Assembly (NCBI GenBank): GCA_973895155.1
Contig: OZ316895.1
Coordinates: 248,001 to 312,000 of the forward strand
Origin: Marsupella aquatica
Lineage: Eukaryota > Plantae > Marchantiophyta
DNA: 64,000 nucleotides
Direction: 5' to 3'
The notes beneath the pieces are model-generated. The model was not told the origin of the DNA. It saw only the letters and a program-made list of their open reading frames with translations, and searched no databases. A program made the position numbers and the translations under genes. Below, one piece after another: positions 1 through 60,156 of this stretch. The stretch's first letter is position 1; each line of letters starts with the position of its first letter.

Positions 1-1641
1 GGTGTCTGGTCCTCAATGGACGCCCCCAACGCTTCCTCCGCAGCCACTACCGTAGGTCCATTCTCTGACAGATTACCTGCTCCGGACCGAGTCAACTCTC
101 CATCGGCCTGACTGGGTCCACCCTCGGCTTCGGCCTCAGCATCGGCCACGGCCTCTGATACGGCTACGGTCTCCCCGACATGCTCTAGTGGTGGATCCGG
201 TACCCTGGCTTCATCACCGAGTATCCTGGCCTCGGCTTTGCCATCCCCGCCTTCTAGGGCAGTTGGATCCTCTACCGTGATCCTGCCTGAGGTTGGTGTT
301 GGGTTTACCTCCTTGGTCACGACGGCTTGAGGAGCCGTATTACTCCCTGACCCAGAAGGTTTCCGCTTCTTCTTCTTCCTTGGTTCGGCAGCTGGCCCCT
401 TCCCCTTGCCACTTACCTCCGGCACCGGTGCGAGTATCTCGGCTTGTCCTTCAGCCAGTACTACTCCTGGAAACTTGGTTGCCCCTATTGGAGTTGGACC
501 TGAGGAAGCCAAGCACTTAAATACTGCGGCCTGTTTCTTCAACCACTCCATTTGGTTGTCGGCTTGCCGCTGTAAGTTCTCCATCTTCCGCGTGCTTTCC
601 TCCAACTCCTCCTTAAATTCATCCAGGTCCTTGCGCGCCTCCTTCTGCTCCTTCTGGGCTTCCTCCAATTCCTTCTTTAAGGTAGCCCTCTCCTCCTGGG
701 TTGCTCTCAGCTCCTTGTCGAGCTCCGTAACGACCTCAGACTCCATTTTATTCATCTTGGCATAAGTTTGATCAAGCTGGTCGTCTTTCTCACGCAGGTC
801 GGCCTTGAAGCTGGCCGTCAGGGATGCAAGCTTCTGCCGCAGCACGATAATTGCCTGATAGGATTTCCCTAACTCGGCCTCCTTCTGCTCAAGGGCACCG
901 CGGATATCCTTGAGTTCCCCCTTCAGCGCCCTTTCCCTTCTCTGAGTTTCCGCCATGGCCCGATTGTTGGCTGCTATGTGGGCCTCCTCTGCGTCTCTCA
1001 GCTCTCGCTTCCACTTCTCCTTCTCCTTGATCAAATCGGCCAACTCTCCTTGGGTCCGAGTCAGTTTATCCTTGATAATCTGATTATTAGACTGCGCGGT
1101 ATCCAATTGCCCCTGCATGATGTTGAGCTCATGCCGCTTAATCCGCAACTCATCTTGGGCTTTCTTGGTCGCCTTCAGGTCTTCTACCTTGGCTTCCCTT
1201 GCCCTAAGCCGACGGATGACCTCATTCTTCTTGCTTCTCTCCAAAGCCACCGCTTCTTCTAATCGGCGCTTCTCCAACATTTTCCTCTGGAAAAAGGGTC
1301 CCTGCTCCAACTCCTCCCCAAAGATGCCGAGCGCAAGTTCCCCACACATCTCCCCGTACTCCATGGCTCGTTCTTTAGCATAGGCGGAGTGAGTAGAAGT
1401 CATCGGCATCATCCATCATGGCCTTTGTTCCCAAGCCGCCTTGCAGATTTCTTCTATTGTGGCTGGAGGGTTGCTTCATTTTTCTGCGAGCCGCATGATG
1501 TGCTCCGACCATTCTCCCCCATGGTAAATCTTTCTCCCTAGCCAGGGCTGCCTTCTCTTCCTCCCTGAGTCGCTCCTGAAACTCTTGTGCTATCTGTTTT
1601 ATGCCGTCAAAGCTCGGGGGAGCGACATCTGGTGGGGGAGA
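1..1641 (-). mobile_element. 3' part of an older, decayed copy of the ORF-bearing TG..CA unit; continues past the left window edge
   Basis: Colinear, diverged homology to ~2570-4205 (PPPDVAPPSFDGIKQ..., coiled coil, TPIGATKFPGVVLAE). Ends at GGAGA (1637-1641), the reverse complement of TSD TCTCC. Confidence 0.9.
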
Positions 1642-4600
1642 TGTGGTGCGTCCCATGGCTCCCTAAACCCAAGAAACCCCCCAGCTCAAGCCGATTCCCG
1701 CAGGTTTCGTGCTTGGCGAGGCTGTTTCCGCGGCTTAGCGACATGGGACGCTGCTAACCTTCTACTACTACTATTAACATTTTACACACATATACTGGAC
1801 AGATCCTTCATCGGGTCATGAGATACGTAGCCGGCCTAAGCTAGGCCTTCCCCTGTCTTCCCCTCCATCTTGATAGGTATGTTTGGATTCCGCCGCCGGA
1901 ATGATCCCCAATAGGCTTGGTTAAGCCGCTAAGACCTCTCTCAGCTCGACACATCCAACTCTCACTCCCCTGCTTACTTTCCTTCCTTCTGTTGATGTGG
2001 GCACTCTTCACACAAGTTAATGCGACACACAAATAGCAAAATGACTCATTCTGACTGAGTCATACCATGCACTTGCCATACAAACAGTACATCTCATACA
2101 CAAGTTCTGCGAACTAAGCCGTGAGGCCAACTCTATTCAGCTCTTAGGCATGAGGAAACATGAATATACACAAGGGTCACTGTATGACTAACCGAGAGCT
2201 TCTCGTACTACTTGATCCCAGCCCGGCTGGTGCAAACTAAAAACTTGCTAAAGAAGAGGCCCTGAGCTCCCCGCTGCCCAGGTACTTATCCTGGTAGTGG
2301 ATCCGCCATTCTTTGCATCGTAAGCCTAATCTACTTAACAGTAAGCTACTTGCCCGAATCTACCTATGTACAGCAAGGCAGGAGCACAAGTGTTGCTCCT
2401 ACCAGTTGGACCGCAATCCCACTAAGCTAAGTGTCAGGGCCGCTCCTGGTCCTGATCCTAATCCTAAACTTGGAGATCAGCGCCCGCCCTGCCCACTCAC
2501 GCCTCCTCCCTCCACGTCCGCCCTCCCCAAAAGGAATGGCGCCCTTGCACCGTCACGACATCGGTGGTGGATCCTTAATGGACGCCCCCAACGCTTCCTC
2601 CTCAGCCACTGCCGTAGGTTCATTCCCTGACAGATTACCTGCCCTTGACTGAGTCAACTCTCCATCGGCCTGACTGGGTCCACCATCGGCGTCGGCATCG
2701 GCTCGGGAATCGGTTACGGCCTCAGCCACGGCTTGGGTCTCCCCGGCCTGCTCAAGAGGCGGATCTGGGATACCGGCCTCATTACTGAGTAGTTCGGCTT
2801 GGGCCGCACCACACCCACCTGTGATGATAGCGGGATCTATTGCCGTATTCATGCCGGAGGATGGTGCTGGTTCTACCTCCTTGGTCACCACGGCTTGTGG
2901 AGCCGGATTACTCTTTGACCCTGAAGGTTTCCGCTTCTTCTTCTTTTCTGGTTCGGCAGCTGGTCCCTTCCCCTTCCCACTTACTTCCGGCACTGGTGCA
3001 GGTGGCGCGGCTTTTTCGGCCAGTACCACTCCTGGTAACTTGGTTGCCCCAATTGGAGTTGGGCCTGATGAAGACAAGCACTTAAATACTGCAGCTTGTT
3101 TCTTCAGCCGCTCCGTTTGGTTGTCGGCCCGCCGCTGGAGGTTCTCCATCTTCCTCGTGATTTCCTCCAACTCCTCCTGGGTCTCATCCAGGTCCTTGCG
3201 TGCCTCCTCTAGTTCCTTCTGGGCTTCCTCCCGTTCTTGTTTCAAGGTAGTCCTCTCCTCCTGGGTTGCTCTTAGCTCCTTGTCGAGCTCTGCAATGATG
3301 ACAGACTCCATCTGGTTCATCTTGGCGTAAGTCTGTTCGAGCATCTCGTCCTTCTCCCTCAGGTCGGCCTTGAAGCTGGCCGTCAGGGACGCAAGCTCCT
3401 GCTGCAGCGCCATAATCCCTTGATAGGATTTCCCTAACTCGGTCTCCTTCTGCTCAAGGGCTCTGCGGATTTTCTCGAGCTCCCCTTTCAACGCCCATTC
3501 CTTTCTTTGGGTCTCCGCCATGGCCCGGCTGTTGGCTGTTATGTGGGCCTCCTCTGTATTCTTCAGCTCTTGCTTCCACTTCTCCCTCTCTTTGATCGTG
3601 TCGGCCAACTCTCCCTGCGTCTGAGTCAGTTTATCCTTGATATTCTGATTATCAGCCTGCGCGGTGTCCAACTGCCCCTGCATGATGTTCAGCTCATGTC
3701 GTTTAATCCGCAGTTCATCTTGGGCTTTCTTGGCCGCCCTTAGATCTTCAATCTCGGCTTCCATCCTCCTAAGCCGCCGAATGACCTCATCCTTCTTGCT
3801 TCTCTCTAAAGCCACCGCTTCTTCTAATTGGTGCTTCTCCAACTGCTCCCTATGGAAAAAGGGTCCTACCTCCAACTCCTCTCCAAAGATGCCGAGCGCA
3901 AGTTCCCCACACATCTCACCATACTCCATGGCTCTATTCTTAGCATAGGTGGAGTAAGTAGAAGTGATCGGCATCGCCCATCGCGGCCTCTGCTCCCAAG
4001 CCGTCCTGCGGATCTCTTCAATCGTGGCTAGAGGTTTGCTTCCTTTTTTGGCTAGCCGCCTGATGTCCTCTGGCCAATCTCCTCCTGGTAAATCCTTTTC
4101 CTTAGCCAGGGCTGCCTCCTCCTCCTGCTTGATTCGCTCCTGAAATTCCTGCACCGTCTGTTTTATGCCGTCGAAGCTCGGGGGAGCAACATCTGGTGGG
4201 GGAGACTCAGGGCTACTCTGCTGGTTGGGGTCCCCTCGCACTACCCTTGGAAGTGTGGGGACCAACCGGCCACAGGTCCTTACTCCTGGAACGTGATGGT
4301 CCGACCCATAGCCGGAATTATCATGGCTGCAGTCCTCCACTGCCTCCTCTACCTCTTGGACGTCCGGCTTCTCCCTCTCCTCTTCGTCGGTAGGAGCTTC
4401 AGGCAATTCTGCCTCAGATTCGGAGCTTGAGGTTCCCACGTACATTCGAACACCTGGCTTGGATTCCGGCCTGATTCTCTCCTTGTCTCCAGCAAAGGGG
4501 TTTTCTCTTGTGAGCCGGTGTAGGCCTACCTCTGTAGTAGTGTCCTGCATTGTTGCCGTTGCCATTGTTGTTGCCGATGCCGATTTCTTTTCTTTCTCCA

Positions 4601-6298
4601 GTAGTTTCAGCAGACTCTGCATGCCTGGTTGCTGCATCGGCAAGTCCTCCTTCCTGGGCCTAAACACCTGCTCGATCGTAGGACTAACAGGTGGTTGAGG
4701 CTTCTCAGCCAACGGCCTCGGCGTTGGAGCTTCCTCGGGTGCCCTTACCTGCAGGGGAAGTACCGGGGCAAAAGTCTGACCTCTGGCATACCGGCACAAC
4801 AGCGGCATGTGATAGCCAAGCCGCGACACGCTCCCCATGCCGATTACCTGCTGCTCCTCCTTTAAGATCTTCTTCAATTGGTTGAGGAGGTACCCGTTGT
4901 AGTCCTGGCTTGGGTCTGGCCTTTCTGCCAGATAGACCTGTGCCTTGCCGATCTCTGCCCTCGGCAAGTTACAATGCATGGTCACCCGCAAGAAGTCGAT
5001 CATCTCTCCTGTGTGCGGGTTGGTGCAGGTGTTCCGGAAGAAGCCATTCTTCGTTGATGGCCCGGGGAACGACCGGAACTCCTTGTCAGGCAAGGTCTTC
5101 CTGGTATCAACTTTGGTCTTATTGCCTATCGGCAAGCCAAACACTTCGGCAATTACCTTGGGAGTAAGATAGAAATCCTTCCCATATATCCTCGTGCAAT
5201 TGGTCTCGGGTTCCCATGACCCCACGAATTCTAATAGGTCTGACTCCGGTACCTCCGGCTTCAGCCATGGTAATCTTACAAAGGCCTCCAAGCCGGATCC
5301 GGCCATGAAGCCTTGGTACTTCTTGGTCTGCATGGCCGTAAAGCATGCATCCTCCTCCCGTGCAAATTGTAGTTGCACCTCCACCGGTAGGGTTGCCGCC
5401 CAGCCCTTCCAGGTGTCATCCCTGGTTGGAATGGCCTTGATGGGATCGACCTCCTCCTCTTCGGCTTCTCCCTGCCTCCTGCTCTGCTGCTCGGCTGGCT
5501 TCTTTGGTGCCGCCGACCTCGTTCTTTTTATCGGGGTGGCTTCATCGTTGACGGCTCCCTTCCTCTTCATCTCTGCTGCCGTGGAGGTTTCTCCTAGCAC
5601 CGTTGCCTGGGTCCACCTTTCCGTGCTACCCTTTAATTCCCAGTGTATGTCGTTGCAGTTCTTGATGGCCTCTCGGATGCCGACGACGCTGTCTTTGCAA
5701 AACAGAAGATCGTCGAGTTGATTGGAAGTAGGCGTCCACAGGAACTCGTCCTTGATGAGTTCGCCTCCTAAGAAAGCCGTCTTCTGCAGCTCCCACAATC
5801 GAGCGAGCTCCTGCCGTTCTTGAGCTGCCCTTTCTGATTCCTCGTCCTCGTAAGTCTTGATGTACTCAGTTGCCCGTTGGAACAGGCATCCCCAGAAATG
5901 TGCCGCTTGATTGACGTTGCTCATACCCTCCTTAGGTCGATCGTCGGTATCTACTCTCTCCCCGAGTGCTTGCCTAAGCAGCTGACAGTAGTTGGCCTCG
6001 TAGTCGTCTGCCTAGTTCGTGCTCGCAAATGAGCCACCATCTCCTGCAAGCGCTCCTTACCCCTCTCCTCCGCCGGTCCTTCTTCCTGTTGATCCTTCCT
6101 AGCCGCCGACGCTTAACGCGCCCTAACCCTAATCGAGTTTTCACCTTCAGCGTCCTTACCTCCGGTCTCGGCCCGGGTTCCATGGTTGCCCCTAATGGTT
6201 TATATTTTCCTTGTTTTGTCCCTATACTAAGGTGTTCCTAGGGTGCCTTCCTGCTTTACCCACTTAACCGGCCGAGTGATTCCTGTCTAGGCATCACA
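1642..6298 (-). mobile_element. Copy A of the 4.66-kb ORF-bearing LTR-like/TG..CA unit
   Basis: On the minus strand it begins TGTGATGCCTAG (6298) and ends GGGACGCACCACA (1642). Near-identical reverse complement of 8663-13328. Confidence 0.93.
2553..5924 (-). CDS. 1123-aa element-encoded protein: transposon-accessory-like N-terminal domain (LLEFVGSW...FYLTPKVIAEVFGLP), acidic/Pro linker, ~250-aa coiled coil, KKKKRK NLS-like motif, low-complexity tail
   Basis: Uninterrupted ORF, homologous in three other copies, with many third-position differences versus the old copy. The domain assignment is by motif resemblance only. Confidence 0.85.
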   Translation of the reverse strand: MSNVNQAAHFWGCLFQRATEYIKTYEDEESERAAQERQELARLWELQKTAFLGGELIKDEFLWTPTSNQLDDLLFCKDSVVGIREAIKNCNDIHWELKGSTERWTQATVLGETSTAAEMKRKGAVNDEATPIKRTRSAAPKKPAEQQSRRQGEAEEEEVDPIKAIPTRDDTWKGWAATLPVEVQLQFAREEDACFTAMQTKKYQGFMAGSGLEAFVRLPWLKPEVPESDLLEFVGSWEPETNCTRIYGKDFYLTPKVIAEVFGLPIGNKTKVDTRKTLPDKEFRSFPGPSTKNGFFRNTCTNPHTGEMIDFLRVTMHCNLPRAEIGKAQVYLAERPDPSQDYNGYLLNQLKKILKEEQQVIGMGSVSRLGYHMPLLCRYARGQTFAPVLPLQVRAPEEAPTPRPLAEKPQPPVSPTIEQVFRPRKEDLPMQQPGMQSLLKLLEKEKKSASATTMATATMQDTTTEVGLHRLTRENPFAGDKERIRPESKPGVRMYVGTSSSESEAELPEAPTDEEEREKPDVQEVEEAVEDCSHDNSGYGSDHHVPGVRTCGRLVPTLPRVVRGDPNQQSSPESPPPDVAPPSFDGIKQTVQEFQERIKQEEEAALAKEKDLPGGDWPEDIRRLAKKGSKPLATIEEIRRTAWEQRPRWAMPITSTYSTYAKNRAMEYGEMCGELALGIFGEELEVGPFFHREQLEKHQLEEAVALERSKKDEVIRRLRRMEAEIEDLRAAKKAQDELRIKRHELNIMQGQLDTAQADNQNIKDKLTQTQGELADTIKEREKWKQELKNTEEAHITANSRAMAETQRKEWALKGELEKIRRALEQKETELGKSYQGIMALQQELASLTASFKADLREKDEMLEQTYAKMNQMESVIIAELDKELRATQEERTTLKQEREEAQKELEEARKDLDETQEELEEITRKMENLQRRADNQTERLKKQAAVFKCLSSSGPTPIGATKLPGVVLAEKAAPPAPVPEVSGKGKGPAAEPEKKKKRKPSGSKSNPAPQAVVTKEVEPAPSSGMNTAIDPAIITGGCGAAQAELLSNEAGIPDPPLEQAGETQAVAEAVTDSRADADADGGPSQADGELTQSRAGNLSGNEPTAVAEEEALGASIKDPPPMS

Positions 6299-6498
6299 AG
6301 TATCGCCATGGGCCTTTTGTAGCCCCGTACATCTCTTCTATATCCTACAATAAAGGTGCAACCACCTGATGATGAGGAGAACTGGTCATTGAGTCCTTGT
6401 CAAAATCAGTCTGAAGTTGCACTATTGACTGCACCCCACTCTAAGTAAAACTGGTCCGTCGTCCATTGGGTAGCCCCGCAGCACTAGAAGAATCCATG

Positions 6499-8662
6499 TG
6501 TGATGCCTAGCCAGGAATCATTAGGCCAGTTTAAATAGTAAAATCAGGAGTGTACCCTAGGAAACACCTTAGTATAGTAAAAAAACAGGGAAAATATAAA
6601 CAATTAAGGGTGATTATGGAACCTGAGCCGAGGCCGAAAATAAGGACGCCGGGGGAGGGAACACGATTAGGGTTAGGGCGCGCTAAGTACTGGCGGCTAT
6701 GGGTAACCAACGGGAAGGAAGACCAGCCAGGGGGTAAGGACTGATTGCAAGGAATGGCGGCTCATTTGCAAGCACAAGCCAACGTGACAACTACGGGAGG
6801 CCAACTACTGTCCGTTGCTCAGGCAAGCACTCAGGGTGGAAGCAGATGCCGATAATCAACTCAAGAAGGGTATGAGCAACGTCAATCAAGCTGCTCATTT
6901 TTGGGGATGCCTGTTAGAACGGGCAACTGAGTACATTGGGACCTACGAGGACAAAGAATTGGAGAGAGCAGCTCGAGAACGGCAGGAGCTCGCTCGGCTG
7001 TGGGAGGTGCAGAAGTCTGCCTTCTTAGGAGGAGAACTCATTACGGCTGAATTCTTGTGGACGCCTATTGCCGATGAACTCGACGATCTTCTGTTTTGTG
7101 AGAATAGAATAGTCGGCATCCGGTAGGCCATCAACTGCTGCAATGACATACACTGGGAGTTGAAGGGTAGCACGGAGGGGTGGACGAAGGCAACCATGCT
7201 AGGAGAAACATCCACGGTAGCCGCTATGAAGAGGAAAGGGAACAACAATGAAGAAGCCACCCCTGCGAAAAGAACGAGGTCGGCGGCACCCAGGAAACCA
7301 GCAAAGCAGGGAAGCAGGAGGTAGGCGGAAGCCGAAGAGGAGGAGGTCGACCCCATCAATGTCGTTCCAACAAGAGAAGACACTTGGAAAGGCTAGGCGG
7401 CGACCCTCCCCGAGGAGGTGCAATTACACTTTGCACGGGAAGAGGATGCATGCTTTACAGCTATACAGACGCGGAAATACCAGGGCTTCATAGCCGGATC
7501 GGGCTTGGAAGCCTTCGTAAAGTTACCATGGCTGAAGCCAGAGGTGCCGGATTCAGACTTACTAGAATTCGTGGGATCATGGGAGCCCAAGACCAATTCC
7601 ACAAGGGTGTATGGGAAGGATTTCTATCTCACTCCCCGGGTGATTGCCGAAGTGTTTGGCTTGCCGATGGGCAATAAGACCAAAGTAGATACCAGGAAGA
7701 CCTTGCCAGACAAGGAGTTCCGGTCATTTCTAGGGCCATCAACAAAGAATGGCTTCTTCCGAAACACCTGCACAAACCCGCACATAGGAGAAATGATCGA
7801 TTTCTTGCGGGTAACCATGCATTGCAACTCCGAGGGCAGAGATCGGCAAGGCACAGGTCTATCTGGCGGAGACGCCAAACCCAAGCCGGGACTACAACGG
7901 GTACCTCCTCACCCAACTAAAGAAGATCTTGAAGGAGGAACAACTGGTGATCGGCATGGGAAGTGTGTCCCGGCTTGGCTATCATATGCCGCTGTTGTGC
8001 CGATATGCCCAAAGTCAGATATTTGCCCCGGTACTTCCCCTGCAGGCAAGAGCACCAGAGGAGGTTCCAGAACCAAGGCCGGCAATAGAGAAACCAACCC
8101 AGCCCGACAGTCTTACAATCGAGCAGGTGTTTAGGCCGAGGAAGGAGGACTTGCCAATGCAGCAACCAGGCATGCAGAATCTGCTGAAATTGCTGGAGAA
8201 GAAAAGGAGAACGGCAACGGCAACAGGACCGGTATAGAATACTACTCCCAAAGTCGGCCTTAGCCAACTTACCAAGGAAAACCCTTTTACCGGGGTCAAG
8301 GAGAGAAGGAGGTTGGAACACGAGCCGGGAGTCCGAATGTATGTAGGAGCTTCAAGTCCCGAAGCCGAGGAAAAGCAGCCCAAAGCTCCTGGTCGCGACA
8401 AGGAGAAGATGAGATCAACGTGGAAGCCGGAGGAACCAGGACCCGTGATCTGTGAGGCCGTGTTCACGGCAAGACCAGGACAGCAGTGGGGGGAGCCGGT
8501 AGTCCAAGCCGAGGAGGAGGCGGTAGAAGGCTACGACAATGATGACTCCGGCTACGGGTCGGACCATCATGTTCCAGGAATAAGGACCTGTGGCAGGTTC
8601 ATCCCCATGCTTCCAAGAGTAGTTTGAGGGGACCCGACCCAGCAGAGCAGCCCCGAGTCTCC
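6499..8662 (+). mobile_element. 5' part of the older decayed copy of the unit (ORF pseudogenised)
   Basis: Starts TGTGATGCCTAG at 6499; ATGAGCAACGTCAATCAA at ~6872; in-frame stops (~7124, 7322, 7394, 8235, 8625) and a frameshift near 7830; ends in TCTCC immediately before copy B. Confidence 0.92.
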
Positions 8663-11600
8663 TGTGATGCCTAGACAGGAATCACTCGGCCAGTTAAGTG
8701 GGTAAAGCAGGAAGGCACCCTAGGAACACCTTAGTATAGGGACAAAACAAGGAAAATATAAACCATTAGGGGCAACCATGGAACCCGGGCCGAGGCCGGA
8801 GGTAAGGACGCTGAAGGTGAAAACTCGATTAGGGTTAGGGCGCGTTAAGCGTCGGCGGCTAGGAAGGATCAACGGGAAGAAGGACCGGCAGAGGAGAGGG
8901 GTAAGGAGCGCTTGCAGGAGATGGTGGCTCATTTGCGAGCACGAACTAGGCAGACGACTACGAGGCCAACTACTGTCAGCTGCTTAGGCAAGCACTCGGG
9001 GAGAGAGTAGATACCGACGATCGACCTAAGGAGGGTATGAGCAACGTCAATCAAGCGGCACATTTCTGGGGATGCCTGTTCGAACGGGCAACTGAGTACA
9101 TCAAGACTTATGAGGATGAGGAATCAGAAAGGGCAGCTCAAGAACGGCAGGAGCTCGCTCGATTGTGGGAGCTGCAGAAGACGGCTTTCTTAGGAGGCGA
9201 ACTCATCAAGGACGAGTTCCTGTGGACGCCTACTTCCAATCAACTCGACGATCTTCTGTTTTGCAAAGACAGCGTCGTCGGCATCCGAGAGGCCATCAAG
9301 AACTACAACGACATACACTGGGAATTAAAGGGTAGCACGGAAAGGTGGACCCAGGCAACGGTGCTAGGAGAAACCTCCACGGCAGCAGAGATGAAGAGGA
9401 AGGGAGCCGTCAACGATGAAGCCACCCCGACAAAAAGAACGAGGTCGGCGGCACCAAAGAAGCCAGCCGAGCAGCAGAGCAGGAGGCAGGGAGAAGCCGA
9501 AGAGGAGGAGGTCGATCCCATCAAGGCCATTCCAACCAGGGATGACACCTGGAAGGGCTGGGCGGCAACCCTACCGGTGGAGGTGCAACTACATTTTGCA
9601 CGGGAGGAGGATGCATGCTTTACGGCCATGCAAACCAAGAAGTACCAAGGCTTCATGGCCGGATCCGGCTTAGAGGCCTTTGTAAGATTACCATGGCTGA
9701 AGCCGGAGGTACCGGAGTCAGACCTATTAGAATTCATGGGGTCATGGGAACCCGAGACCAATTGCACGAGGATATATGGGAAGGATTTCTATCTTACTCC
9801 CAAGGTAATTGCCGAAGTGTTTGGCTTGCCGATAGGCAATAAGACCAAAGTTGATACCAGGAAGACCTTGCCTGACAAGGAGTTCCGGTCGTTCCCCGGG
9901 CCATCAACGAAGAATGGCTTCTTCCGGAACACCTGCACCAACCCGCACACAGGAGAGATGATCGACTTCTTGCGGGTGACCATGCATTGTAACTTGCCGA
10001 GGGCAGAGATCGGCAAGGCACAGGTCTATCTGGCAGAAAGGCCAGACCCAAGCCGGGACTACAACGGGTACCTCCTCAACCAATTGAAGAAGATCTTAAA
10101 GGAGGAGCAGCAGGTAATCGGCATGGGGAGCGTGTCGCGGCTTGGCTATCACATGCCGCTGTTGTGCCGGTATGCCAGAGGTCAGACTTTTGCCCCGGTA
10201 CTTCCCCTGCAGGTAAGGGCACCCGAGGAAGCTCCAACGCCGAGGCCGTTGGCTGAGAAGCCTCAACCACCTGTTAGTCCTACGATCGAGCAGGTGTTTA
10301 GGCCCAGGAAGGAGGACTTGCCGATGCAGCAACCAGGCATGCAGAGTCTGCTGAAACTACTGGAGAAAGAAAAGAAATCGGCATCGGCAACAACAACGGC
10401 AACGGCAACAATGCAGGACACTACTACAGAGGTAGGCCTACACCGGCTCACAAGAGAAAACCCCTTTGCTGGAGACAAGGAGAGAATCAGGCCGGAATCC
10501 AAGCCAGGTGTTCGAATGTACGTGGGAACCTCAAGCTCCGAATCTGAGGCAGAGTTGCCTGAAGCTCCTACCGACGAAGAGGAGAGGGAGAAGCCGGACG
10601 TCCAAGAGGTAGAGGAGGCAGTGGAGGACTGCAGCCATGATAATTCCGGCTATGGGTCGGACCATCACGTTCCAGGAGTAAGGACCTGTGGCCGGTTGGT
10701 CCCCACACTTCCAAGGGTAGTGCGAGGGGACCCCAACCAGCAGAGTAGCCCTGAGTCTCCCCCACCAGATGTTGCTCCCCCGAGCTTCGACGGCATAAAA
10801 CAGACGGTGCAGGAATTTCAGGAGCGAATCAAGCAGAGGAGGAGGCAGCCCTGGCTAAGGAAAAGGATTTACCAGGAGGAGATTGGCCAGAGGACATCAG
10901 GCGGCTAGCCAAAAAAGGAAGCAAACCTCTAGCCACGATTGAAGAGATCCGCAGGACGGCTTGGGAGCAGAGGCCGCGATGGGCGATGCCGATCACTTCT
11001 ACTTACTCCACCTACGCTAAGAATAGAGCCATGGAGTATGGTGAGATGTGTGGGGAACTTGCGCTCGGCATCTTTGGAGAGGAGTTGGAGGTAGGACCCT
11101 TTTTCCATAGGGAGCAGTTGGAGAAGCACCAATTAGAAGAAGCGGTGGCTTTAGAGAGAAGCAAGAAGGATGAGGTCATTCGGCGGCTTAGGAGGATGGA
11201 AGCCGAGATTGAAGATCTAAGGGCGGCCAAGAAAGCCCAAGATGAACTGCGGATTAAACGACATGAGCTGAACATCATGCAGGGGCAGTTGGACACCGCG
11301 CAGGCTGATAATCAGAATATCAAGGATAAACTGACTCAGACGCAGGGAGAGTTGGCCGACACGATCAAAGAGAGGGAGAAGTGGAAGCAAGAGCTGAAGA
11401 ATACAGAGGAGGCCCACATAACAGCCAACAGCCGGGCCATGGCGGAGACCCAAAGAAAGGAATGGGCGTTGAAAGGGGAGCTCGAGAAAATCCGCGGAGC
11501 CCTTGAGCAGAAGGAGGCCGAGTTAGGGAAATCCTATCAAGGGATTATGGCGCTGCAGCAGGAGCTTGCGTCCCTGACGGCCAGCTTCAAGGCCGACCTA

Positions 11601-13328
11601 AGGGAGAAGGACGAGATGCTCGAACAGAATTACGCCAAGATGAATCAGATGGAGTCTGTCATCATTACAGAGCTCGACAAGGAGCTAAGAGCAACCCAGG
11701 AGGAGAGGACTACCTTGAAACAAGAACGGGAGGAAGCCCAGAAGGAACTAGAGGAGGCACGCAAGGACCTGGATGAGACCCAGGAGGAGTTGGAGGAAAT
11801 CACGAGGAAGATGGAGAACCTCCAGCGGCGGGCCGACAACCAAACGGAGCGGCTGAAGAAACAAGCCGCAGTATTTAAGTGCTTGTCTTCATCAGGCCCA
11901 ACTCCAATTGGGGCAACCAAGTTACCAGGAGTGGTACTGGCCAAAAAAGCCGCGCCACCTGCACCAGTGCCGGAGGTAAGTGGGAAGGGGAAGGGACCAG
12001 CTGCCGAACCAGAAAAGAAGAAAAAGCGGAAACCTTCAGGGTCAAGGAGTAATCCGACTCCACAAGCCGTGGTGACCAAAGAGGTAGAACCAGCACCATC
12101 CTCCGACATGAATACGACAATAGATCCTGCTATGATCACAGGTGGGGGTGGTGCGGCCCAAGCCGAACTACTCAGTAAGGAGGCCGGTATTCCAGATCCG
12201 CCTCTTGAGCAGGCCGGGGAGACCGTAGCCGAGGCTGAGGCCGTAACCGATTCTCGAGCCGATGCCGACGCCGATGGTGGACCCAGTCAGGCCGATGGAG
12301 AGTTGACTCAGTCAAGGGCAGGTAATCTGTCAGGGAATGAGCCTACGGCAGTGGCTGAGGAGGAAGCGTTGGGGGCGTCCATTAAGGATCCACCACCGGT
12401 GTCGTGACGGTGCAAGGGCGCCGTTCCTTTTAGGGAGGGCGGACGTGGAGGGAGGAGGCGTGAGTGGGCAGGGCGGGCGCGGATCTCCACGTTTAGGATT
12501 AGGATCAGAACCAGGAGCGGCCCTGACACTTAGCTTAGTGGGATTGCGGTCCCACTGGTAGGAGCAACACTTGTGCTCCTGCCTTGCTGTACATAGGTAG
12601 ATTCGGGCAAGTAGATTACTGTTAAGTAGATTAGGCTTACGATGCAAAGAATGGCGGATCCACTACCAGGATAAGTACCTGGGCAGCGGGGAGCTCAGGG
12701 CCTCTTCTTTAGCAAGTTTTTAGTTTGCACCAGCCGGGCTGGGATCAAGTAGTACGAGAAGCTCTCGGTTAGTCATACAGTGACCCTTGTGTATATTCAT
12801 GTTTCCTCATGCCTAAGAGCTGAATAGAGTTGGCCTCACGGCTTAGTTCGCAGAACTTGTGTATGAGATGTACTGTTTGTATGGCAAGTGCATGGTATGA
12901 CTCAGTCAGAATGAGTCATTTTGCTATTTGTGTGTCGCATTAACTTGTGTGAAGAGTGCCCACATCAACAGAAGGAAGGAAAGTAAGCAGGGGAGTGAGA
13001 GTTGGATGTGTCGAGCTGAGAGAGGTCTTAGCGGCTTAACCAAGCCTATTGGGGATCATTCCGGCGGCGGAATCCAAACATACCTAACAAGACGGAGGGG
13101 AAGACAGGGGAAGACAGGGGAAGGCCTATATTAGGCCGGCTACGTATCTCATGACCCGATGAAGGATCTGTCCAGTATATGTGTGTAAAATGTTAATAGT
13201 AGTAGTAGAAGGTTAGTAGCGTCCCATGCCGCTAAGCCGCGGAAACGGCCTCGCCAAGCACGAAACCTGCGGGAATCGGCTTGAGCTGGGGTGTTTCTTG
13301 GGTTTAGGGAGCCATGGGACGCACCACA
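8663..13328 (+). mobile_element. Copy B of the 4.66-kb ORF-bearing LTR-like/TG..CA unit
   Basis: TGTGATGCCTAG at 8663 to GGGACGCACCACA at 13328; ~99% identical to copy A by eye. Confidence 0.93.
9037..12407 (+). pseudogene. Copy B ORF, split by a 1-bp deletion near 10836
   Basis: ORFs 9037-10908 and 10986-12407 together match the 1123-aa protein. AAGCAG-AGGAGG here versus AAGCAGGAGGAGG in copy A. Confidence 0.85.
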
Positions 13329-14150
13329 AAGCTCTGATTGATTATTGTACTACTTCTCGTGATCATCCTGGGGCAAATGGATTGGCTGAGAGAGTAGTGC
13401 AAACTATGAAGAGAGGGTTGCGCAAGTATGGCTTGCAGGTTGGTCACCTAGGAGATTGGGATCTTTAGTTGCCTTGGTTAGCTATGGGCTACCGCTTTAG
13501 TTGACAAGCATCACTTGCATCCTTCTCACCTTATTTCTTGCTCTATGGTAGAGAACTAGATTTATCAATAGCTATTCATTGTGATACTGCATCAATTGTG
13601 AACTTGGATAATCCTGATGTTTGGGTCAAGGTTTGTTCCGAGAGGGGCAAGGTTTTTGATAGAATATATGATGCCCATGGCCTTTGACAACCTTGCCATT
13701 GCCCAACATCGTGATACTCTATGGTATGCCACTATTCGTGGAGGAGGTTATCGTGCCAAGATTTGGTGATTGGACCATCATGGTGATTATGTGTATTTGC
13801 AGCAGATAGCACCCACTACACTTGGTGTGACCGCAAGTCGGACCATTTTACGTGTGCGTGAAGTGCTGTCTTTTGGTGTCCTAATGTTGGAGGGACGTGA
13901 TGGTATGGTTTGGAAGCATCATGTGCGCAACTGTGCACCATGTCATCTTCCAAATATTGATGACCGTGTAGTGGATCCAAGCTTAGCACATGTTCGTGCT
14001 GGTTTGAAGTATATGTTGTGCGGATCTGCTCAAGGAGTAGCTACTATGTTGATTTGGGATAAGCGTTATAGAGGATGGCACATGTCGTGTTTGACACCAC
14101 CTTTGCAGGTGATTCTTTGTAGATCATGGTTGTGTCCTCAATGTCGGTGA
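13329..14150 (+). mobile_element. Decayed Ty3/gypsy integrase C-terminal half followed by a PHD finger
   Basis: ALIDYCTTSRDHPGANGLAERVVQTMKRGLRKY (integrase catalytic Glu region), SPYFLLYGR, then CGS..MLIWDK..RGWHMSCLTPPL...WLCPQC. Stops and frameshifts present; truncated on the left by copy B. Confidence 0.8.
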
Positions 14151-14690
14151 AACTGACTAGTTATCATTTGTGTTCTCTTGGAAGAATGATATGGATTGCA
14201 GGTAGGTGATTGATGGGGCTCACTTGCACCCGGCCTCTTGATCTTCACACCAGAAAAGGTGTATATCAACCTTGTAGAAATTATGGCTAGCTAGGGTTAG
14301 GGGACTTTACTCCCAGCTAGGGAGACGATTGGGTTTTGGGCATGTGTGGACACGAGTTCCACTTGTATTCTATTCTCTTGTGTTTGTGACATGGTAGTGT
14401 GACTATGTTTGGATGTATGTGACAAACAATGTATGTTGTGTAGCGATGTGTATGCGCACGACAACTATAAGATGACCCAAAAACACCCACCAACCATTAA
14501 TATGGGACTCCAAGCCTACATAGACAACATGATTTTGCCTAATGTGCTAACATGCCAACCAACATCGATCCACTCTCACACCATAGCCATACTCACACTG
14601 ACGACAAGACCCTACTAGTGTAAGAAAGCTCAACTTGGAAGAATGAGGTCTTTGTCAATCCTCATTCTCCAAGGTATGTTCCTTGATTTT

Positions 14691-15036
14691 TGTTGAGCAT
14701 AGATGACATTCACAACGGTAAGCACATCACACATCCAACACGCAAATTGTAGTCGACACAAGAAATACATGGTTCATCTCCTTGAGGCTACGTCCATGGA
14801 AACACACAAGAGAGCTTTATTGAACTCTAAGCCCGTAGACCATATCAAGTCTCCATAGTGTAAACTCTCTTCATCTCTCAAGTGGCTCTCTAACAATGAG
14901 CCTTAGTTCCATCTATCCAAGCATACACCTCTAAGGATATAATGTGCAACTTAGTTAACCTAATCACATCTTTGACTACGGTTAGCCTAACTATGGTTAC
15001 AATTGTAACCCTAGACCTAAAAGTAAATACCTAACA
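14691..15036 (-). mobile_element. Solo LTR related to the Copia LTR at 35253/41313
   Basis: TGTTGAGCATAGA...AGTAAATACCTAACA; shared core CCTTGAGGCTACGTCCA; TSD ATTTT at 14686-14690 and 15037-15041. Confidence 0.9.
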
Positions 15037-19547: not shown

Positions 19548-20405
19548 CTACTTTCCAGGATGCCACTTGATGCTGCATCCAATACTAGGCTTTTGGTTGC
19601 TTGGTATTGGCTGGCCCGATAGAAGAGCGTCAGCTGCTGCCTTTAATTCTCGACCAGTGGGAGTTGCATTGGTCCTTGGTCGAGTTTCATCGTACCTCCC
19701 ATGATATGCAAGCTCAAATGGCTTTCGCCCATCCTTCTTGAAGAGGAAAAAGTCAGGGGTGCAGACAGCCCCATACGCCTTGGCAACCTCCTGGGTCTCA
19801 TCATAAAGATAAGGAAACGAGTACCCATAAGTTTCTGCATCCTCTGCCATGTAAGCGGGTCCATCCTGAGGATGCGTTTCGACAGAATTAGAAGATATGG
19901 CAACTACTCCCAGCCCTTTCTGCTGATACTCCCGCGCAAAATTCGCCAGAGACTCTTTGAGATGCACCACGAATGGACAATGGTTGCAGATGAACATCAC
20001 CAGAAGGCCCTGCTGATCTTCGAAATCGTCCAGCTTCCAGGTTTTCCGGGTCAGAGGCTCCGGCAGCTCGAACGCCGGAGCTCTCAATGCAAGCGGCACT
20101 TCCTTTGATTCCATCCTCGCTGCCCGAACGGAGACTGGTCCAGTTCGTTTTCCTGCAGACGGTAGCTGATGATGCTGAAAGCGACACAGATTGGTGAGCG
20201 CAGCAACAGAGAGGGACGAAATTCCGGAGCTTCGAGAAAATATGTGTTTCTGTCTGGGGCAAAGATGCGCACGCGGAGCGGGGAGGAGCGGGAAGTGGAG
20301 ACGTGTTGTAGTTGTTGTTGCGGAAGTAGTAGCACTACGGAGGGGCCAGGCGCAAGCAGTGGTACAGAGGTCGTTGCGGGACGAGGAGAGGAGTCTTGTC
20401 GCCAT
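19548..20405 (-). CDS. Plastid-targeted thioredoxin-fold AhpC/TSA (redoxin-like) protein, intronless
   Basis: Ser/Thr/Arg-rich transit-like N-terminus, then APAFELPEP, LVMFICNHCPFV, YGAVCTPDFFLF, PSIGCSIKW. The first ATG (MATRLL) is taken as the start. Confidence 0.9.
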   Translation of the reverse strand: MATRLLSSSRNDLCTTACAWPLRSATTSATTTTTRLHFPLLPAPRAHLCPRQKHIFSRSSGISSLSVAALTNLCRFQHHQLPSAGKRTGPVSVRAARMESKEVPLALRAPAFELPEPLTRKTWKLDDFEDQQGLLVMFICNHCPFVVHLKESLANFAREYQQKGLGVVAISSNSVETHPQDGPAYMAEDAETYGYSFPYLYDETQEVAKAYGAVCTPDFFLFKKDGRKPFELAYHGRYDETRPRTNATPTGRELKAAADALLSGQPIPSNQKPSIGCSIKWHPGK

Positions 20406-20513
20406 GGCAATTGCTGCTGTGGAGATCTTTGTGTGGGACACCGAAAAGTAGGTCACTTACACTCCCGTTCACGGGTCCGGAGTTCCTATGGGACGAGCTG
20501 GGAGCGGAGTCAC

Positions 20514-22306: not shown

Positions 22307-25300
22307 CTAAACGATCAACGGAGATTCGGCTTCACTTTCAGGCGGTGCTTTCACTCGTTGTTGCGCATCTTCCGCCTGCCACATGGGATCTCAAGCAATA
22401 AGTGGTTGCTATGGGGAAAACTGCAGTATTATACTTCTGCATCGAACTAAGGTTTGATTCAATGATATACTGTGCAAGCAGATCGCTTTCTACTCAATGT
22501 GGTGACCATTACATGATTAGTGTCAACAAAATACTGCAGATTGTTTCATTACCTACAGTAGGTGTCTTACGGCGATTGCGCCCTACTGATTACTTTAGAT
22601 GTTTCATTCAGCACATGGCCAAGAGGGGAAATCACCGATATAGAAAGTGTATACACACCATTTTTTTCCAATCAATGGTGACCGTGAGAAAGATTAACGT
22701 GCCGGTTTGAACGACTAACCCGCAGTAAAATCCCAACCATAAACCCTGCAGACATGGTTCTTACAAACATCAAATAGCTCTCGATACGTATGAATACGAA
22801 CACTTCACAGCTTTGGATTGGCAAATATTTGGTGGCACTTCTCAGGCCTTGAAAATAAACAGAAAAGAGCCCCACAAATCAGTACTGTCGCATAGGTTTC
22901 CCATCACTCCAGACATTGCGAGAGGTCTATCGGGTGGACCTAAAAGGCGGTGGGTCATTCATGGATGCAATGTGAGAAGATTGAATTGGGCGAGACTTAC
23001 CAGGGCCCCGTACTGGAAATGAAAACCAAGCACAAAGGCTGCAGGCAACCCAACTACATAGTACGAGCCCAAGTTAACCCATGCGCCTGTCTCTTGCCAG
23101 CCGCATCCCCTCGCCACGCCTACAGAAATGTCAAAGGAAAGTATTCAGCACTCAAGATTGCTTGCTTACCGCTGAGCAAATTGTAGAATTTGTTATGTTT
23201 TGTGAGCCCTAAAAGATCGTTCATGTTTGGGTCACACCAGATAGATTCTACATCGCTGGCCTTGTCGCAGAGCTTAGCTTTCAGAATATAACAGTTCTCT
23301 TAGAAGGAATATCCGACTCTTAAGTTCAATGATTCTCGTCCATGGACGTTTGAAGGTAAATTTAGGTTCCCTTTGTTTCACGGACTCGGTCGAATTTACA
23401 AGGCGACTACACATGCAGTACAGCGAACCAATTAATCAAAATTAAGTCTGCCAGGGCCACTTCATTGGAACGTAAACAATGGAGAAATCAGAGGGGACAA
23501 AAACAGAGTAAGTAGCGGGGAAATTACAAAAACAGATGTACCCACCTGAGAGGACGCCCTGGATGCCATCCAAGAAGGCTGCAATAGCAATTAAGGGTAT
23601 GACTTTAGCTACAGCCTGTACCACCATTGTATCGTCAGTGAAAGCTTTTCCCCAGACATTGCGGACGAGGCATTCACTCGTGGCAATGAGGAAAGAGACA
23701 GCGACAGCGATATAGACAACAACTTTGACAGCGAACTTCGCTGCGGCCGGTCGGTCTGCTCCAAGTTCGTTGGACACTCGTGTGCTGCAGACGATAGTAA
23801 ATTTGCACAACTGAATTTATTTCTTAGAACGAAAGAACAATTGCGAATAAGAAATCGTCAAGGCTCTCACATAAAACTGCCCAAGGCTACCAATAAAATG
23901 TGATGGAAAACTTCTCCCCCAGACTATATGCCGTTGCCAATGACATCATAGGTCGCTTTGAACATTAGATCGTTTTGATTGTTAGATCAACGTGAGGAAC
24001 TTGTTCCTACAATTTCTAAAGAAAATGAGAGAGAGGTTTAGGGTTTAGGGTTTAGGGTTTAGGGTATGTGCACTGTTACCTTACAGCACCGCTTAAGCCC
24101 ATTGGGATCATGTATGTAAGTGCTCCAGTGGTCAGACTGGACAACCGTTGATTTATCACACTTATTGTGTCAGTATGAGAAGTTGCAACTTCAGTGCTCT
24201 GCAACTTGAACATGAGAGACAAGAAACTAGACCCACAGTTCGAGAGTATCCCATTTCAATGCACAGCCACAACTCAAAACTACAGAAAGTTACATAATTC
24301 AAAACTCAGTATAATACAGAAATCGTAAATAGAAAGTGAAGTGTTAGGATGGCTTGCATCGAATCGTTCATATACTTTCATATCCTTACCAGATCGAAAG
24401 TAGAGAAACCTGGAGTTGGGGGTTCGGCATATATCCAGCTAACAAGACCAAGACTTCAAACGCCCAATACTCTAAACTGCCACATCAAAAGCCGTGACTC
24501 CACACAAAGTACCCGGTCAGTAAACTAACTTCCAGCACGGTCGTGGTTGCAAATTTGATCTATGACATTCAATGCTCCAAACAAGTAATTGAATTCTAAG
24601 AGTTCTGATCTGCTAGACCCTATTTCAAAGTATCTCAGTTCTCTATTAGGTTTCCAACGAGTTATTAGGGAGAGAGTTCACTTAAGATGGACATCAAGTT
24701 AGCAGACGTTATGGTCAAATTCAACCAGCCATCTCGCTTCTGTCCACCGCATTCTCCGATTATATACCCTATAGAATTTAGATCTCGTCATTCATACTCC
24801 TCACTTCTACTCTCTGGCTTGAATTTAAACGTGTAACCCTAAACGCATTGATAAGCAGTGATCTGAAAGGACCCTTGGACAAATTGTACGAGCACTCACC
24901 AGACCATAGCAACGGAGGGTATTGCAAGCTTTAAAAAAATGGTGATTGCTCCGAAAGCCTCTTTGCTCAGCCCTTTCCATGTTTCCTCGAACTCATTGGA
25001 GAAGTAGAGGTAAAGGAGTAACAGGACAAGATTGACGTAGACGGCGATGGTACCGGCAAGCGCTCCTCCATGGAATCCCAGCCCCAGTTTAAACACGAGC
25101 AAGTAGCAAGTGGGAATGTGGGCAAGCACTGTCAGCACAGAGCATAACATAATTGGAAACACTGAGCTTTGTGCTTGCAGAAATTTCGAAATAGGCTGAC
25201 TTATGGCACTTGCGAAGAGACTGGGAGATAGCCAACCGAAGTACACTCCTGCCATTCTCGCAATGTCCGGATCCTGGCCTAGAGCTGAGAGGACTTTCTC

Positions 25301-26520
25301 CATGTTCAACCACACGAATGAAATCGGAACACAGACAGCAAGGAGCACGAGTATGGCAGCTTGAACGTAGACGCCAAGCAGGTGATAGTTTTTGGCGCCA
25401 TAGGCTTGTCCGCACAACGTCTCTAGGCCAGTCGATAAGCCAGTCTGCAATGCAATTCCAGGCACGACAGCAGTTGCCACTTCAGTGGTCACCCCATGCA
25501 GGAGCTCGGTGCCAGCTCTGTTCACCTCTTTTCTGTCTTTCGGCTTCTTGTCTCTCACGTGTACTCTGTCCCAATTCAATTATAGTCAATGTAATTTAAT
25601 TTTGTGGGTGTCGGAGTCGAATCTGTGTTCACAACACAAATTCTCCCTCGTTCACGAAATTCTCTCATGTCATTGCAATCGAAGAAACTAGGGTTCTGAT
25701 TTTCTTAGAGTCTCGAGAAATTTTCTGCTGCTGGATGACTTGGACCCTCAATTCTTTCTTTCAATGTCTCTCGTATTTTGAGTTACACATTAGAAGTTCC
25801 GATACGATCACATTCATGGAAAGAATTTGTGGTTAGTTCATCATCTTGTCACTGGAAGCGATTCACTATGCGATACTTAATCAAACTTTTTGCATTACCT
25901 GTCAAGCGATAAAATACATTCAAGAATTCGCAAACATGACTAGGCTCTATAAAAGCTCTACAATAGATCATCCAGTTCACGATTTGTGCCGTACACTCAG
26001 TCAAGCAAGAGCCAGGCGACCAAATTTATAATCAGAGACGACCATAAACTTATTGTCTCTGGATGAGGGGATAGACGTTACAAACTATTTCGACATTACA
26101 TTTACACTTAACATAAATTGTTTCCTTTTGCTGTTTTGAGCACCGGTAAATTTTGCAAAGTGGGAGTCGTTAAGTTTCTAAATCACCTATCAATCAAGAG
26201 ACTTCAGAGTGGACGCGTGCGGGCTCAGCAGCACCTACCAGAACAGTGAAGCCAGTCACACTGGCGAAGGAGGTCGCAAGAGTAGCACTCGACAGCTGGA
26301 GCACTCCAAGGTGACCAACGAACATACTCGATATAACCCAGATGGAATATTGCATAAGATTGGAAATCACCAGATATCCAGCCAGGTCAAATTGTTTTCT
26401 AACTTCTATCCACACTCCAGCATTCCCGGTTTGATTTACGACAACATCACTGGAGGTGGTCTCGTAGCCACCATTTTCATCATCGGAGTCAGGTAGAAGA
26501 GGCTTCGTAATGGAACCCAT
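22307..26520 (-). CDS. MATE/DTX efflux transporter, 8 exons (approx. 26520-26239, 25444-24900, 24476-24390, 24136-24080, 23784-23546, 23119-23001, 22745-22659, 22375-22307)
   Basis: [83 protein letters not shown], with GT-AG boundaries. Confidence 0.92.
24037..24064 (+). repeat. (TTTAGGG)4 interstitial telomeric repeat in a MATE intron
   Basis: Four perfect units read directly. Confidence 0.95.
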
Positions 26521-28384: not shown

Positions 28385-28945
28385 AAATCCCGTTGGTGAT
28401 GGCCCAGGGAACGATCTAAATTCTTTGTCCAAATGGTTCTTCCGAGAGTCCACCTTGGTTTTATTGCCCATCGGCAATCCAAAGTACCTCAATCACTCTT
28501 GGGGTCAAATTGAACACCCTCTTGTAGATGTTGGTTGCTTCTGACTCGTAGTCCCACAAGCCTACAAATTCCAACAAGTCCAAATTCGTCACCTATTGTT
28601 TCATCCATGGTAACCGATAAAGGTTTCCAAGCTGGACCCGGCCATGAAACCCTGATATTTGCGGGATTGGATTACTGTGAAATAGGTATCCTTGTCCCCA
28701 CAAAATACAATTGGACCTCCTTTGGCAAGACACCCGCCCAACCTGTCCAATTGTTGTTCTAAGTGGGGATGGCCCTGGCCAAATTGACCTCCAGTTGTCT
28801 GGCTCCCTCCGGCTTCTTCCTTCCGGCCTCAACAGTCTTTTTTGGTGTCGCTGATCTGGTCCTTTTTTTCAGAGTGGCCTCATCATTTGAAGCTCCCTTC
28901 CTCTTCATGCTGGCCGCCTTCAATGATTCTCTTTTCATCTTTTAG
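28385..28945 (-). mobile_element. Highly decayed fragment of the ORF of the 4.66-kb unit
   Basis: GATGGCCCAGGGAACGA...TTATTGCCCATCGGCAA...GGCCATGAA...GCTCCCTTCCTCTTCAT aligns with ~5055-5580. Confidence 0.8.
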
Positions 28946-29144
28946 GATAGATTCCCTTCCCAATGCACTTTGCAGCTGACAATCAGAATGCACTTGTTCA
29001 CTCTCGTGCGCACTATAGCTTGTTCAAAGTCACTGTCTATTGTCTGCAAAAAAAATGTACAGGTATATTAGAAAATTACACAAGAGCAAAGTCTCTACAA
29101 AAACATGTTATACTTCAAGGAGACCCCATTCACACCAAAAAAAA

Positions 29145-29489
29145 TGTTAGATATTGCTCTAGTCTTGTAGCTCATGAGCTAACCACAGTTAGTCTAACTC
29201 GGGTTAAGATTTAGCTAATGTTAGCGGTAGTGCTGTTGTGCATATAGCCAGGGCTGATGCCAGACCCTGGGTGGAACTTAGGCTCATTGTTACGGAGCTA
29301 GTTGAGAGATAGGGAGAGCTTGTGCTGTGGATGCTTGGTATGACCGGTCGGTCTAGAGTGCAGTAAAGCTCTTGTGTGTTCCCGTGGACGTAGCCTCATG
29401 TGGAGGTGAACCACACATCTCTCTGTGTCGACTCTTGTACGTTGGATGGTTCATGGGCTTGCAGTTGTGAATGTTGTCTATGCTTAACA
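29145..29489 (+). mobile_element. Copia-type solo LTR, same LTR family as 35253
   Basis: TGTTAG...GCTTAACA; CTTGTGTGTTCCCGTGGACGTAGCCTCA core; flanked by AAAAA on both sides. Confidence 0.85.
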
Positions 29490-35400: not shown

Positions 35401-35846
35401 TACCGAGTCTCCACAGTGTAAGCTCTCCCTATCTCTCAAGTGGCTCCATAACAATGAGCCTTGGTTCTACCTCTCCAAGCACACATGCCTCTTACGATAT
35501 AGTGTGCAACTTAGTTGTACCTAACCACATAGTTTTACCTAATCACGTAGTTGTACCTAACCACATAGTTGTACCTAATCACGTAATTGTACCTAACCAC
35601 GTAGTTGTACCTAACCACATCATACCTAACCTAGACGTAAGAGTAAATACCCAACAATCTTCCCCTTGACTTTGGTCTAGGGGAGAGTAATACTGCCAAT
35701 GTATATGATCCCTCAGTGGGAAGTTCTGGACAAAAACCAAACCGGTTTCCCTCTCTAACTAGAGCAAACCAGAACTAAGCCGTAGCCTAATACATAGGAA
35801 TGAGGAAGAGCATATATCAGTAATTACAATGAATGTTAAGAAAACT

Positions 35847-41298: not shown

Positions 41299-41310
41299 GC
41301 TTTGATACCA
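41299..41310 (-). promoter_or_regulatory. Primer-binding site of the Copia element
   Basis: TGGTATCAAAGC, 2 nt inside the 5' LTR boundary. Confidence 0.9.
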
Positions 41311-60036: not shown

Positions 60037-60156
60037 GGATGTACCCATGGATTACATTCTTGAAGGTACTATGGGGGGTACTATGTACCCAAACTGGGAT
60101 GTACCCATGGATTACATTCTTGAAGGTACTATGGGGGGTACTATGTACCCAAACTG
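60037..60156 (+). repeat. Perfect 60-bp direct tandem duplication
   Basis: GGATGTACCCATGGATTACATTCTTGAAGGTACTATGGGGGGTACTATGTACCCAAACTG x2. Confidence 0.95.

Follow-up and report, generated by a model that had tools for sequence, protein, structure and literature searches.

A 4.66-kb TG..CA repeat of the liverwort Marsupella aquatica, probably a long terminal repeat, carries a large gene under purifying selection

The unit and its copies

A 64,000-nucleotide stretch of the liverwort Marsupella aquatica (contig OZ316895.1, forward strand, positions 248,001 to 312,000; the whole stretch is called the window here) holds copies of a 4.66-kb unit that has TG..CA termini and encodes one open reading frame (ORF) of 1123 amino acids (aa). 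We consider it quite probable that the unit is a solo long terminal repeat (LTR), likely of a Tat/Athila-type Ty3/gypsy element, and that its complete, selected ORF encodes a protein predicted to serve as a nuclear accessory factor on the chromatin of its own family. The following copies and associated sequences were found in the window.

1642..6298, minus strand: copy A, a 4657-bp TG..CA unit, presumably a solo LTR, with an intact ORF
8663..13328, plus strand: copy B, 4666 bp, 98.5% identical to copy A, its ORF with a 1-bp frameshift near 10836
6499..8662, plus strand: 5′ half of the older copy C, unit positions 1–2098, 81% identical to copy A, with stops and frameshifts
1..1641, minus strand: 3′ half of copy C, from unit position 2094 onward, leaving the window, 83% identical to copy A
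28397..28983, minus strand: copy D, the degraded remnant of a distantly related member of the family, 67% identity in DNA and 39–48% in protein, no termini seen
6299..6498, no strand: a 200-bp spacer separating the 5′ ends of copies A and C
6299–6394, within the spacer: a different repeat interrupted by copy A, with loose ends before 6299 in three of four public sequencing runs

Copies A and B differed by 58 substitutions and 11 gap columns (one 1-bp and one 10-bp indel), with a Kimura two-parameter distance of 0.013. The ORF was located at the same unit position in copies A, B and C, down to 81% identity, and was intact in copy A only: the frameshift of copy B lies near unit position 2174, and copy C showed 7 stops in aligned codons plus frameshifts. 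A first-pass annotation, made from the letters alone, had described a single ORF over about 72% of the unit, and the measured share was 72.4%. The GC content was 50–55% across 1–13328, compared with 40–47% for most other parts of the window. Copies A and B were rejected as the LTR pair of one element, given their inverted orientation and the lack of a primer-binding site (PBS) or polypurine tract (PPT). One insertion inside copy C was seen in the window, and this self-nesting of the family could come from clustering or from targeting.

Flanks of the unit in public sequencing runs

Thirteen of 15 public runs listed contained the window stretch or part of it, six contained at least half of its words, and none was recorded as RNA. 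Four runs, X1, X2, X3 and X6, were compared over 1300–6700 (30, 30, 30 and 27 of 30 bins covered, respectively). The 3′-flank results refer to the 24 of 884 loose ends and the 15 of 83 joints listed, and the 5′-flank results to the same four runs over 6180–6620, with 19 of 71 loose ends listed.

In three of the four runs, representing three studies, the 3′ terminus continued in unit sense as CA-TTTT-TGGCGCTAGA..., that is, CA, four T, and then TGGCGC.... This PBS-like junction was found in 18 contigs of X2 (agreement 0.66) and in one contig each of X3 and X6, the latter with 205 loose letters. By chance, TGG alone would be expected this near the terminus in 9.7% of cases and TGGCGC in 0.08%. 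The junction may be complementary to tRNA-Asn; the PBS types of the OTA clade (Athila/Tat) are those of Asp, Asn, Lys, and Arg tRNAs. According to PMC6317226, a PBS starts with TGG 0–5 bp downstream of the 5′ LTR, and in these three runs TGG fell in that interval past the 3′ end of the unit. The TGGCGC start is also common to the ATHILA PBS, the junction of which (bioRxiv 10.64898/2026.03.20.713144) is composed of the terminus, an AT-rich stretch of 3–6 bp, and TGGCGC....

At the 5′ end, the PPT-like tract AAGGGGGA-T preceded the TG in one X6 contig (376 nt, depth 7.3; background 1.8%); in detail, eight purines and a T were followed by TG, and the contig extended 273 nt into the leader. Other contigs also broke off from the unit at these ends and ran into mixed flanks (agreement 0.52–0.58), as expected from independent insertions. 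None of the joints listed linked the leader to the tail across the ORF. A PBS-like sequence after the CA and a PPT-like tract before the TG mark the unit as a probable LTR, the ORF of which runs in the same direction as the element. The first-pass annotation had left two options, a giant LTR carrying its own gene or a stand-alone unit mobilised in trans; the PBS-like 3′ flank in three of the four runs and the PPT-like 5′ flank in one contig supported the former and disfavoured the latter.

Two further structures were observed in the runs. In X3, the spacer part 6434–6494 ran into another sequence, which starts with TG and is similar to the unit 3′ end read backwards; a related LTR family may have inserted at almost this position. 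In X2, some of the joints listed connected a terminus with the unit interior (4234 and 4801 to 1642, and 2506 to 6499).

Selection on the ORF

The ratio of nonsynonymous to synonymous substitution rates (dN/dS) between copies A and C was 0.10 in the conserved domain (224 codons), 0.19 in the 5′ half (561 codons), and 0.30 in the 3′ half (542 codons). By region, the values were 0.21 (aa 1–165), 0.10 (aa 166–391), and 0.24 (aa 392–590, C 5′ half) in the N-terminal part, and 0.28 (aa 591–700), 0.21 (aa 701–960), and 0.50 (tail) in the C-terminal part. The differences at codon positions 1, 2, and 3 numbered 69, 62, and 161, respectively. Decay of copy C after its insertion can only raise these ratios. 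Judged from the codon substitutions, the ORF is under purifying selection and appears functional for the family.

Termini, target-site duplication, and rearrangement

The unit ends, TGTGATGC and GCACCACA, were complementary at 7 of 8 bases, with no longer inverted match; this bore out the imperfect 8-bp terminal inverted repeats described earlier, and TG..CA termini with a short inverted repeat are found in LTRs. The five unit termini in the window showed neither TGG within 10 nt nor a purine tract, again as first described. Two copies adjoin the following halves of a target-site duplication (TSD).

1637..1641, minus strand: TSD half TCTCC at the 3′ end of copy A
8658..8662, plus strand: TSD half TCTCC at the 5′ end of copy B

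Copy C's 5′ half ends with TCTCC and its 3′ half starts with TCTCC, and copy A has a single TCTCC at unit 2094–2098. The doubling at the split of copy C therefore indicates a 5-bp duplication made by a young copy that inserted into copy C, within the 4–6 bp typical of LTR elements. Thus, the TCTCC duplication claimed at first stood, while its placement on both sides of one copy did not, as the halves now adjoin different copies. Reversing 6299–8662 restores one TSD-flanked copy within copy C, from which we infer an inversion between two opposed copies, or else an assembly flip. Since the 5′ end of copy A cuts another repeat and the 3′ end of copy B cuts a decayed integrase-like frame, the second copy is likely a recombinant of two insertions. 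The repeat cut by copy A continued with other letters in three of the four public runs.

Direct terminal repeats within the unit were not detected, the head-versus-tail score of 24 being equalled in 43 of 200 shuffles, and the whole unit was accordingly rejected as a TRIM, LARD, or TR-GAG element. Separately, the leader (unit 300–328) and the 3′ tail of copy A share a 29-nt imperfect inverted match; its score of 34 was not reached by any of the 200 direct-test shuffles (maximum 31).

The encoded protein and its relatives

2553..5924, minus strand: ORF of copy A, 1123 aa from the first ATG, unit 375–3746, 72.4% of the unit
4752..5429, minus strand: conserved globular domain, aa 166–391, the part common to most outside relatives
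3045..3824, minus strand: proline-free stretch rich in E, K, R, Q, and L, a predicted coiled coil, aa 701–960, from composition and weak sub-threshold matches to coiled-coil families
2928..2945, minus strand: basic cluster, possibly a nuclear localisation signal, aa 994–999, with a second cluster at aa 133
6199..6204, minus strand: TATAAA, candidate ORF promoter, unit position 95, kept at 97 in copy C

The frame was open for 29 codons beyond the first ATG, upstream to 6011, giving 1152 stop-free codons; 100 shuffles averaged 176 and did not exceed 365. A length variant of 2 bases at 5998, ahead of the first ATG, was common in all four runs and present in copy C, so the true protein start may differ between copies. 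From its N-terminus, the protein comprises a helical part, the conserved domain, a Pro/acid-rich linker, the coiled-coil-like stretch, and a low-complexity tail. Consistent with the first description, which had recognised no reverse transcriptase (RT), DDE, or tyrosine-recombinase motif, the ORF contained no CCHC, HHCC, YxDD, or protease motif and had no Pfam match at cut-off, including to the extra-ORF domains PF03078, PF04195, PF10536, and PF20167. No membrane segment, which would mark an env-like protein, was found in it (top 19-residue hydropathy, 0.98).

Among 1.84 billion representatives, a phmmer search with aa 1–400 found 20 matches with E ≤0.001, the best at 41% identity; most were products of short contigs, and the 20 showed no Pfam family of relevance. 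The exact ORF protein was absent from the protein collection searched. The domain alignment used 15 of the 20 matches: P0011, a bacterial repeat protein, was judged a false match and excluded, and P0006, P0008, P0010, and P0021, which match only the N-terminal part, were left out. P0030 repeats the layout of domain, linker, and coiled coil (29% identity over 132 aa). The domain profile, built from 16 sequences, retrieved three Calypogeia fissa proteins in the near length range and none among longer proteins (1303–3720 aa only), and a word-indexed protein search with the whole ORF returned none. One Calypogeia fissa gene model, CAM6097605.1, encodes RT-RNase H-integrase and, downstream on that strand, the rear portion of a distant relative, an arrangement that hints at a position of the relative behind a gypsy pol.

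Among metagenome contigs and prokaryote genomes no related loci were found. Three stretches of viral contigs were reported to encode domain relatives, yet 0 loci were returned, and a pattern match gave none. DNA pattern scans yielded 55 loci in metagenomes and 9 in viral contigs; for none of them did blastn or tblastn detect a resemblance to the unit. Further such scans yielded no loci.

The structure model of the domain was weak (pLDDT 55.8, pTM 0.37), and a single-sequence model was unusable (35.6). The Foldseek comparison proposed at first was run on the conserved domain and, with this weak model, gave no match under E 0.001. A wide fold search found generic helical matches only (best Z 6.0 over 66 residues), and a sequence search of solved structures gave no match under E 0.2. 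These blanks establish neither a new nor a different fold. The helix-hairpin-helix core may resemble the mobile domain and VANC families, a resemblance for which there is also a sub-threshold Atlas lead.

Weighing the explanations

Several points weigh against an LTR of Tat/Athila type that encodes a selected nuclear protein. The runs represent relatives (0.52–0.71 of words), not provably the source genome; the PBS-like junction was absent among the six rows listed for X1, and the PPT-like tract came from one contig of one of the four runs. No full-length element was seen, no contig listed spanned the unit, and there was no direct link to gag-pol. No primer tRNA was found, and the PBS letters were unmatched in the literature text and supplements searched. 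ATACT before copy A and AAGCT after copy B differ, leaving two of the four A/B junctions with no TSD partner in the window. Further, the A versus B dN/dS was 0.41, on only 39 changes, and the ORF variants in the public runs lacked third-position bias (5/10/11 at the three positions; 26 variants among 40 of 268 rows listed), which fits private changes of copy A, yet lends no support. On the protein side, neither the conserved domain nor any of the 16 aligned family members had a Pfam match, and the Atlas leads, which in favour of this reading point to Transposase_32 and ATHILA clusters, stood at 0.84, below the 0.9 lead line. The Calypogeia relatives showed 20–25% identity, with single-sequence E values of 1e-4 to 4e-4, and were themselves in the profile, and the pol-joined CAM6097605.1 is an automatic gene prediction with no direct pairwise match to the domain.

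Three other explanations were considered. The unit may be an LTR, the protein of which is a particle or movement factor, either a gag-like scaffold or env-like. The 260-residue coiled coil could scaffold, and sense ORFs behind pol are often termed env-like (PMC7264820). However, the absence of a membrane segment, CCHC knuckle, or gag family match speaks against such a role, and the basic clusters fit a nuclear protein, making this explanation improbable.

Alternatively, the autonomous family could have shorter, ordinary LTRs, and the unit would be a derived, LARD-like non-autonomous sub-lineage with an ORF-bearing insert in its LTR and no pol in its internal region. No gag-pol was seen next to the unit, the contigs are short and those with the PBS-like junction are not bridged to the ORF, and non-autonomous ATHILA derivatives are common (bioRxiv 10.64898/2026.03.20.713144). 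In contrast, the distance of the ORF from the 5′ end is equal in copies A, B, and C (the last 81% identical), selection acts on the ORF, the PPT contig reaches 273 nt into the same leader, and no joint among those listed skips the ORF. We regard this sub-lineage as quite improbable. An LTR-borne gene would hold in this case too; only autonomy differs.

Finally, the unit might be a free-standing element, bounded by 8-bp inverted ends and cut or copied whole in trans by an integrase-type enzyme in a Ginger-like manner, as its fixed ends, variable flanks, nested copies, and five PBS- and PPT-less window ends might suggest. This explanation is highly improbable, given that the PBS-like flank from three studies and the PPT-like flank are not expected of a DNA-type unit, the inverted ends pair at 7 of 8 bases only, and neither a DDE motif nor a Pfam match was found in the ORF. 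Ginger-like integrase DNA transposons encode a DDE integrase themselves and end in long inverted repeats, and the unit, with short inverted ends and neither DDE motif nor Pfam match, was rejected as one of them.

Neighbouring sequence in the window

13331..14147, plus strand: decayed integrase-like and PHD-like sequence into which the 3′ end of copy B is inserted; rve_3 E 0.023 and PHD E 0.0033, both below cut-off
19548–20456, minus strand: AhpC/TSA peroxiredoxin-like gene, host-like
24896–25579, minus strand: MATE exon, host-like
35252–41721, minus strand: copia element with gag-pre-integrase, rve, and RVT_2 in pieces, between direct repeats (98% over 283 nt)
41644–46908, minus strand: L1-type LINE with a DUF4283 and zinc knuckle ORF, then a 1001-codon endonuclease-RT frame
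56975–58426, minus strand: ERO1, host-like, one uninterrupted 483-codon frame, possibly intronless

The integrase-like frame at 13331–14147 starts mid-domain and lacks a PBS, and was rejected as the internal region of copy B; it is possibly an old element with a putative chromatin-reading tail on its integrase. Further copies of the copia-flanking repeat were located at 14690–14927 and, inverted, at 29270–29490, and a zf-RVT frame lies at 34306–35331, beyond the copia element. The AhpC/TSA, MATE, and ERO1 genes, the copia element, and the LINE are those of a land-plant genome, and Calypogeia fissa, the one species among the named relatives of the ORF, points to a bryophyte host. The window contained no tRNA genes, and 1–15000 no Rfam families. 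A perfect 60-nt tandem duplication occupies 60037–60156, and a 14-nt array of 7.4 copies occupies 61563–61666.

Proposed mechanism and implications

With the unit read as an LTR, full-length elements would be arranged as LTR-PBS-gag-pol-PPT-LTR with the ORF in both LTRs, and the window copies would be what LTR-LTR recombination left behind, namely solo or recombinant LTRs, further rearranged by an inversion between opposed copies. The gene may have originated as a sense extra ORF behind pol, which would have entered the LTR once plus-strand priming moved to an upstream purine tract. Reverse transcription would then copy an ORF downstream of the working PPT into both LTRs, and the LTR would have grown to 4.66 kb. 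Transcription of the ORF would start from a promoter close to the LTR 5′ end, with the TATAAA at position 95 as a candidate, and would remain possible in solo copies.

By analogy with Retand, Grande, plant mobile domain, and VANC proteins, a nuclear anti-silencing or targeting factor is favoured. It is possible, at somewhat less than even chances, that the protein binds element DNA or chromatin via its conserved domain, oligomerises via the coiled coil, and counters silencing or steers integration. A more far-reaching and rather unlikely proposal is that the family moved an anti-silencing gene into its LTR, so that solo LTRs would act as expression cassettes giving a chromatin-opening or targeting factor in trans to full-length copies. 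If true, LTR-LTR recombination, the main removal route of the host, would multiply the anti-silencing gene instead of deleting it. Plant LTRs are viewed as non-coding and solo-LTR formation as disarming, and a selected 1123-aa gene in an LTR would break both views. Solo copies would remain able to code for protein and would be annotated as orphan genes of the host, and programs that detect LTRs would have to accept ORF-filled 4.7-kb repeats. A self-contained short unit with a candidate promoter would also offer a clean test of the role of plant retrotransposon extra ORFs, a question long open.

Comparison with known systems

Non-chromovirus LTRs of about 5 kb exist (PMC6317226), and Ogre LTRs measure 1.9–6.5 kb (PMC6431247). 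Liverworts contain Tat lineages without aRH (PMC10508981, PMC13468544, PMC12885004). Athila and Tat elements (Ogre, Retand) are similar to the unit in TG..CA ends, 5-bp TSDs, and LTRs of up to about 5 kb (PMC6317226, PMC7264820, PMC11963269), as well as in a large ORF outside gag/pol that combines a small conserved domain with coiled-coil parts and, as far as the PBS-like junction of the unit shows, in a tRNA-type PBS that starts with TGGCGC past an AT-rich spacer. In contrast, the texts covered place their extra ORFs internally, either ahead of gag or in the interval from pol to the 3′ LTR, while the ORF here makes up 72% of the LTR. The unit behaves as a non-chromovirus Ty3/gypsy LTR, likely of the Tat/Athila type.

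The extra ORFs of Retand include SMC-like parts and Transposase_28, and GENE23 of Grande is a nuclear protein (PMC7264820, PMC11963269). Plant mobile domains, which are similar to the anti-silencer VANC, act against Polycomb silencing (bioRxiv 10.1101/2024.09.27.615353); as transposon-borne chromatin-acting domains, these proteins are a functional analogy, with no sequence or fold match to the unit. The rice elements Retrosat2, FRetro3, and RIRE3 (PMC3485330) and Ogre (PMC6431247) share with the unit LTRs of >3 kb and an extra ORF of unknown function, but the ORF0 of the rice elements lies upstream of gag-pol, and Ogre extra ORFs are internal, its long LTRs being treated as non-coding.

No plant LTR with a gene inside was found in the literature covered, subscription journals and Repbase being outside the search. 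The LTR of mouse mammary tumour virus (MMTV) is about 1.3 kb. One precedent for a whole gene in an LTR was found in the literature, MMTV sag, which lies complete in the U3 part of its LTR, much as the ORF here lies complete in the unit; both LTRs carry such a gene, and solo LTRs would in principle carry it too (PMC12548423). It differs in being the superantigen gene of a vertebrate retrovirus in a much smaller LTR, and no sequence relation is implied. Since PMC6317226 classed extra ORFs only as upstream or downstream of pol, some could lie unremarked in LTRs. In the texts covered, large LTRs together with extra ORFs are already known, with the ORFs placed internally.

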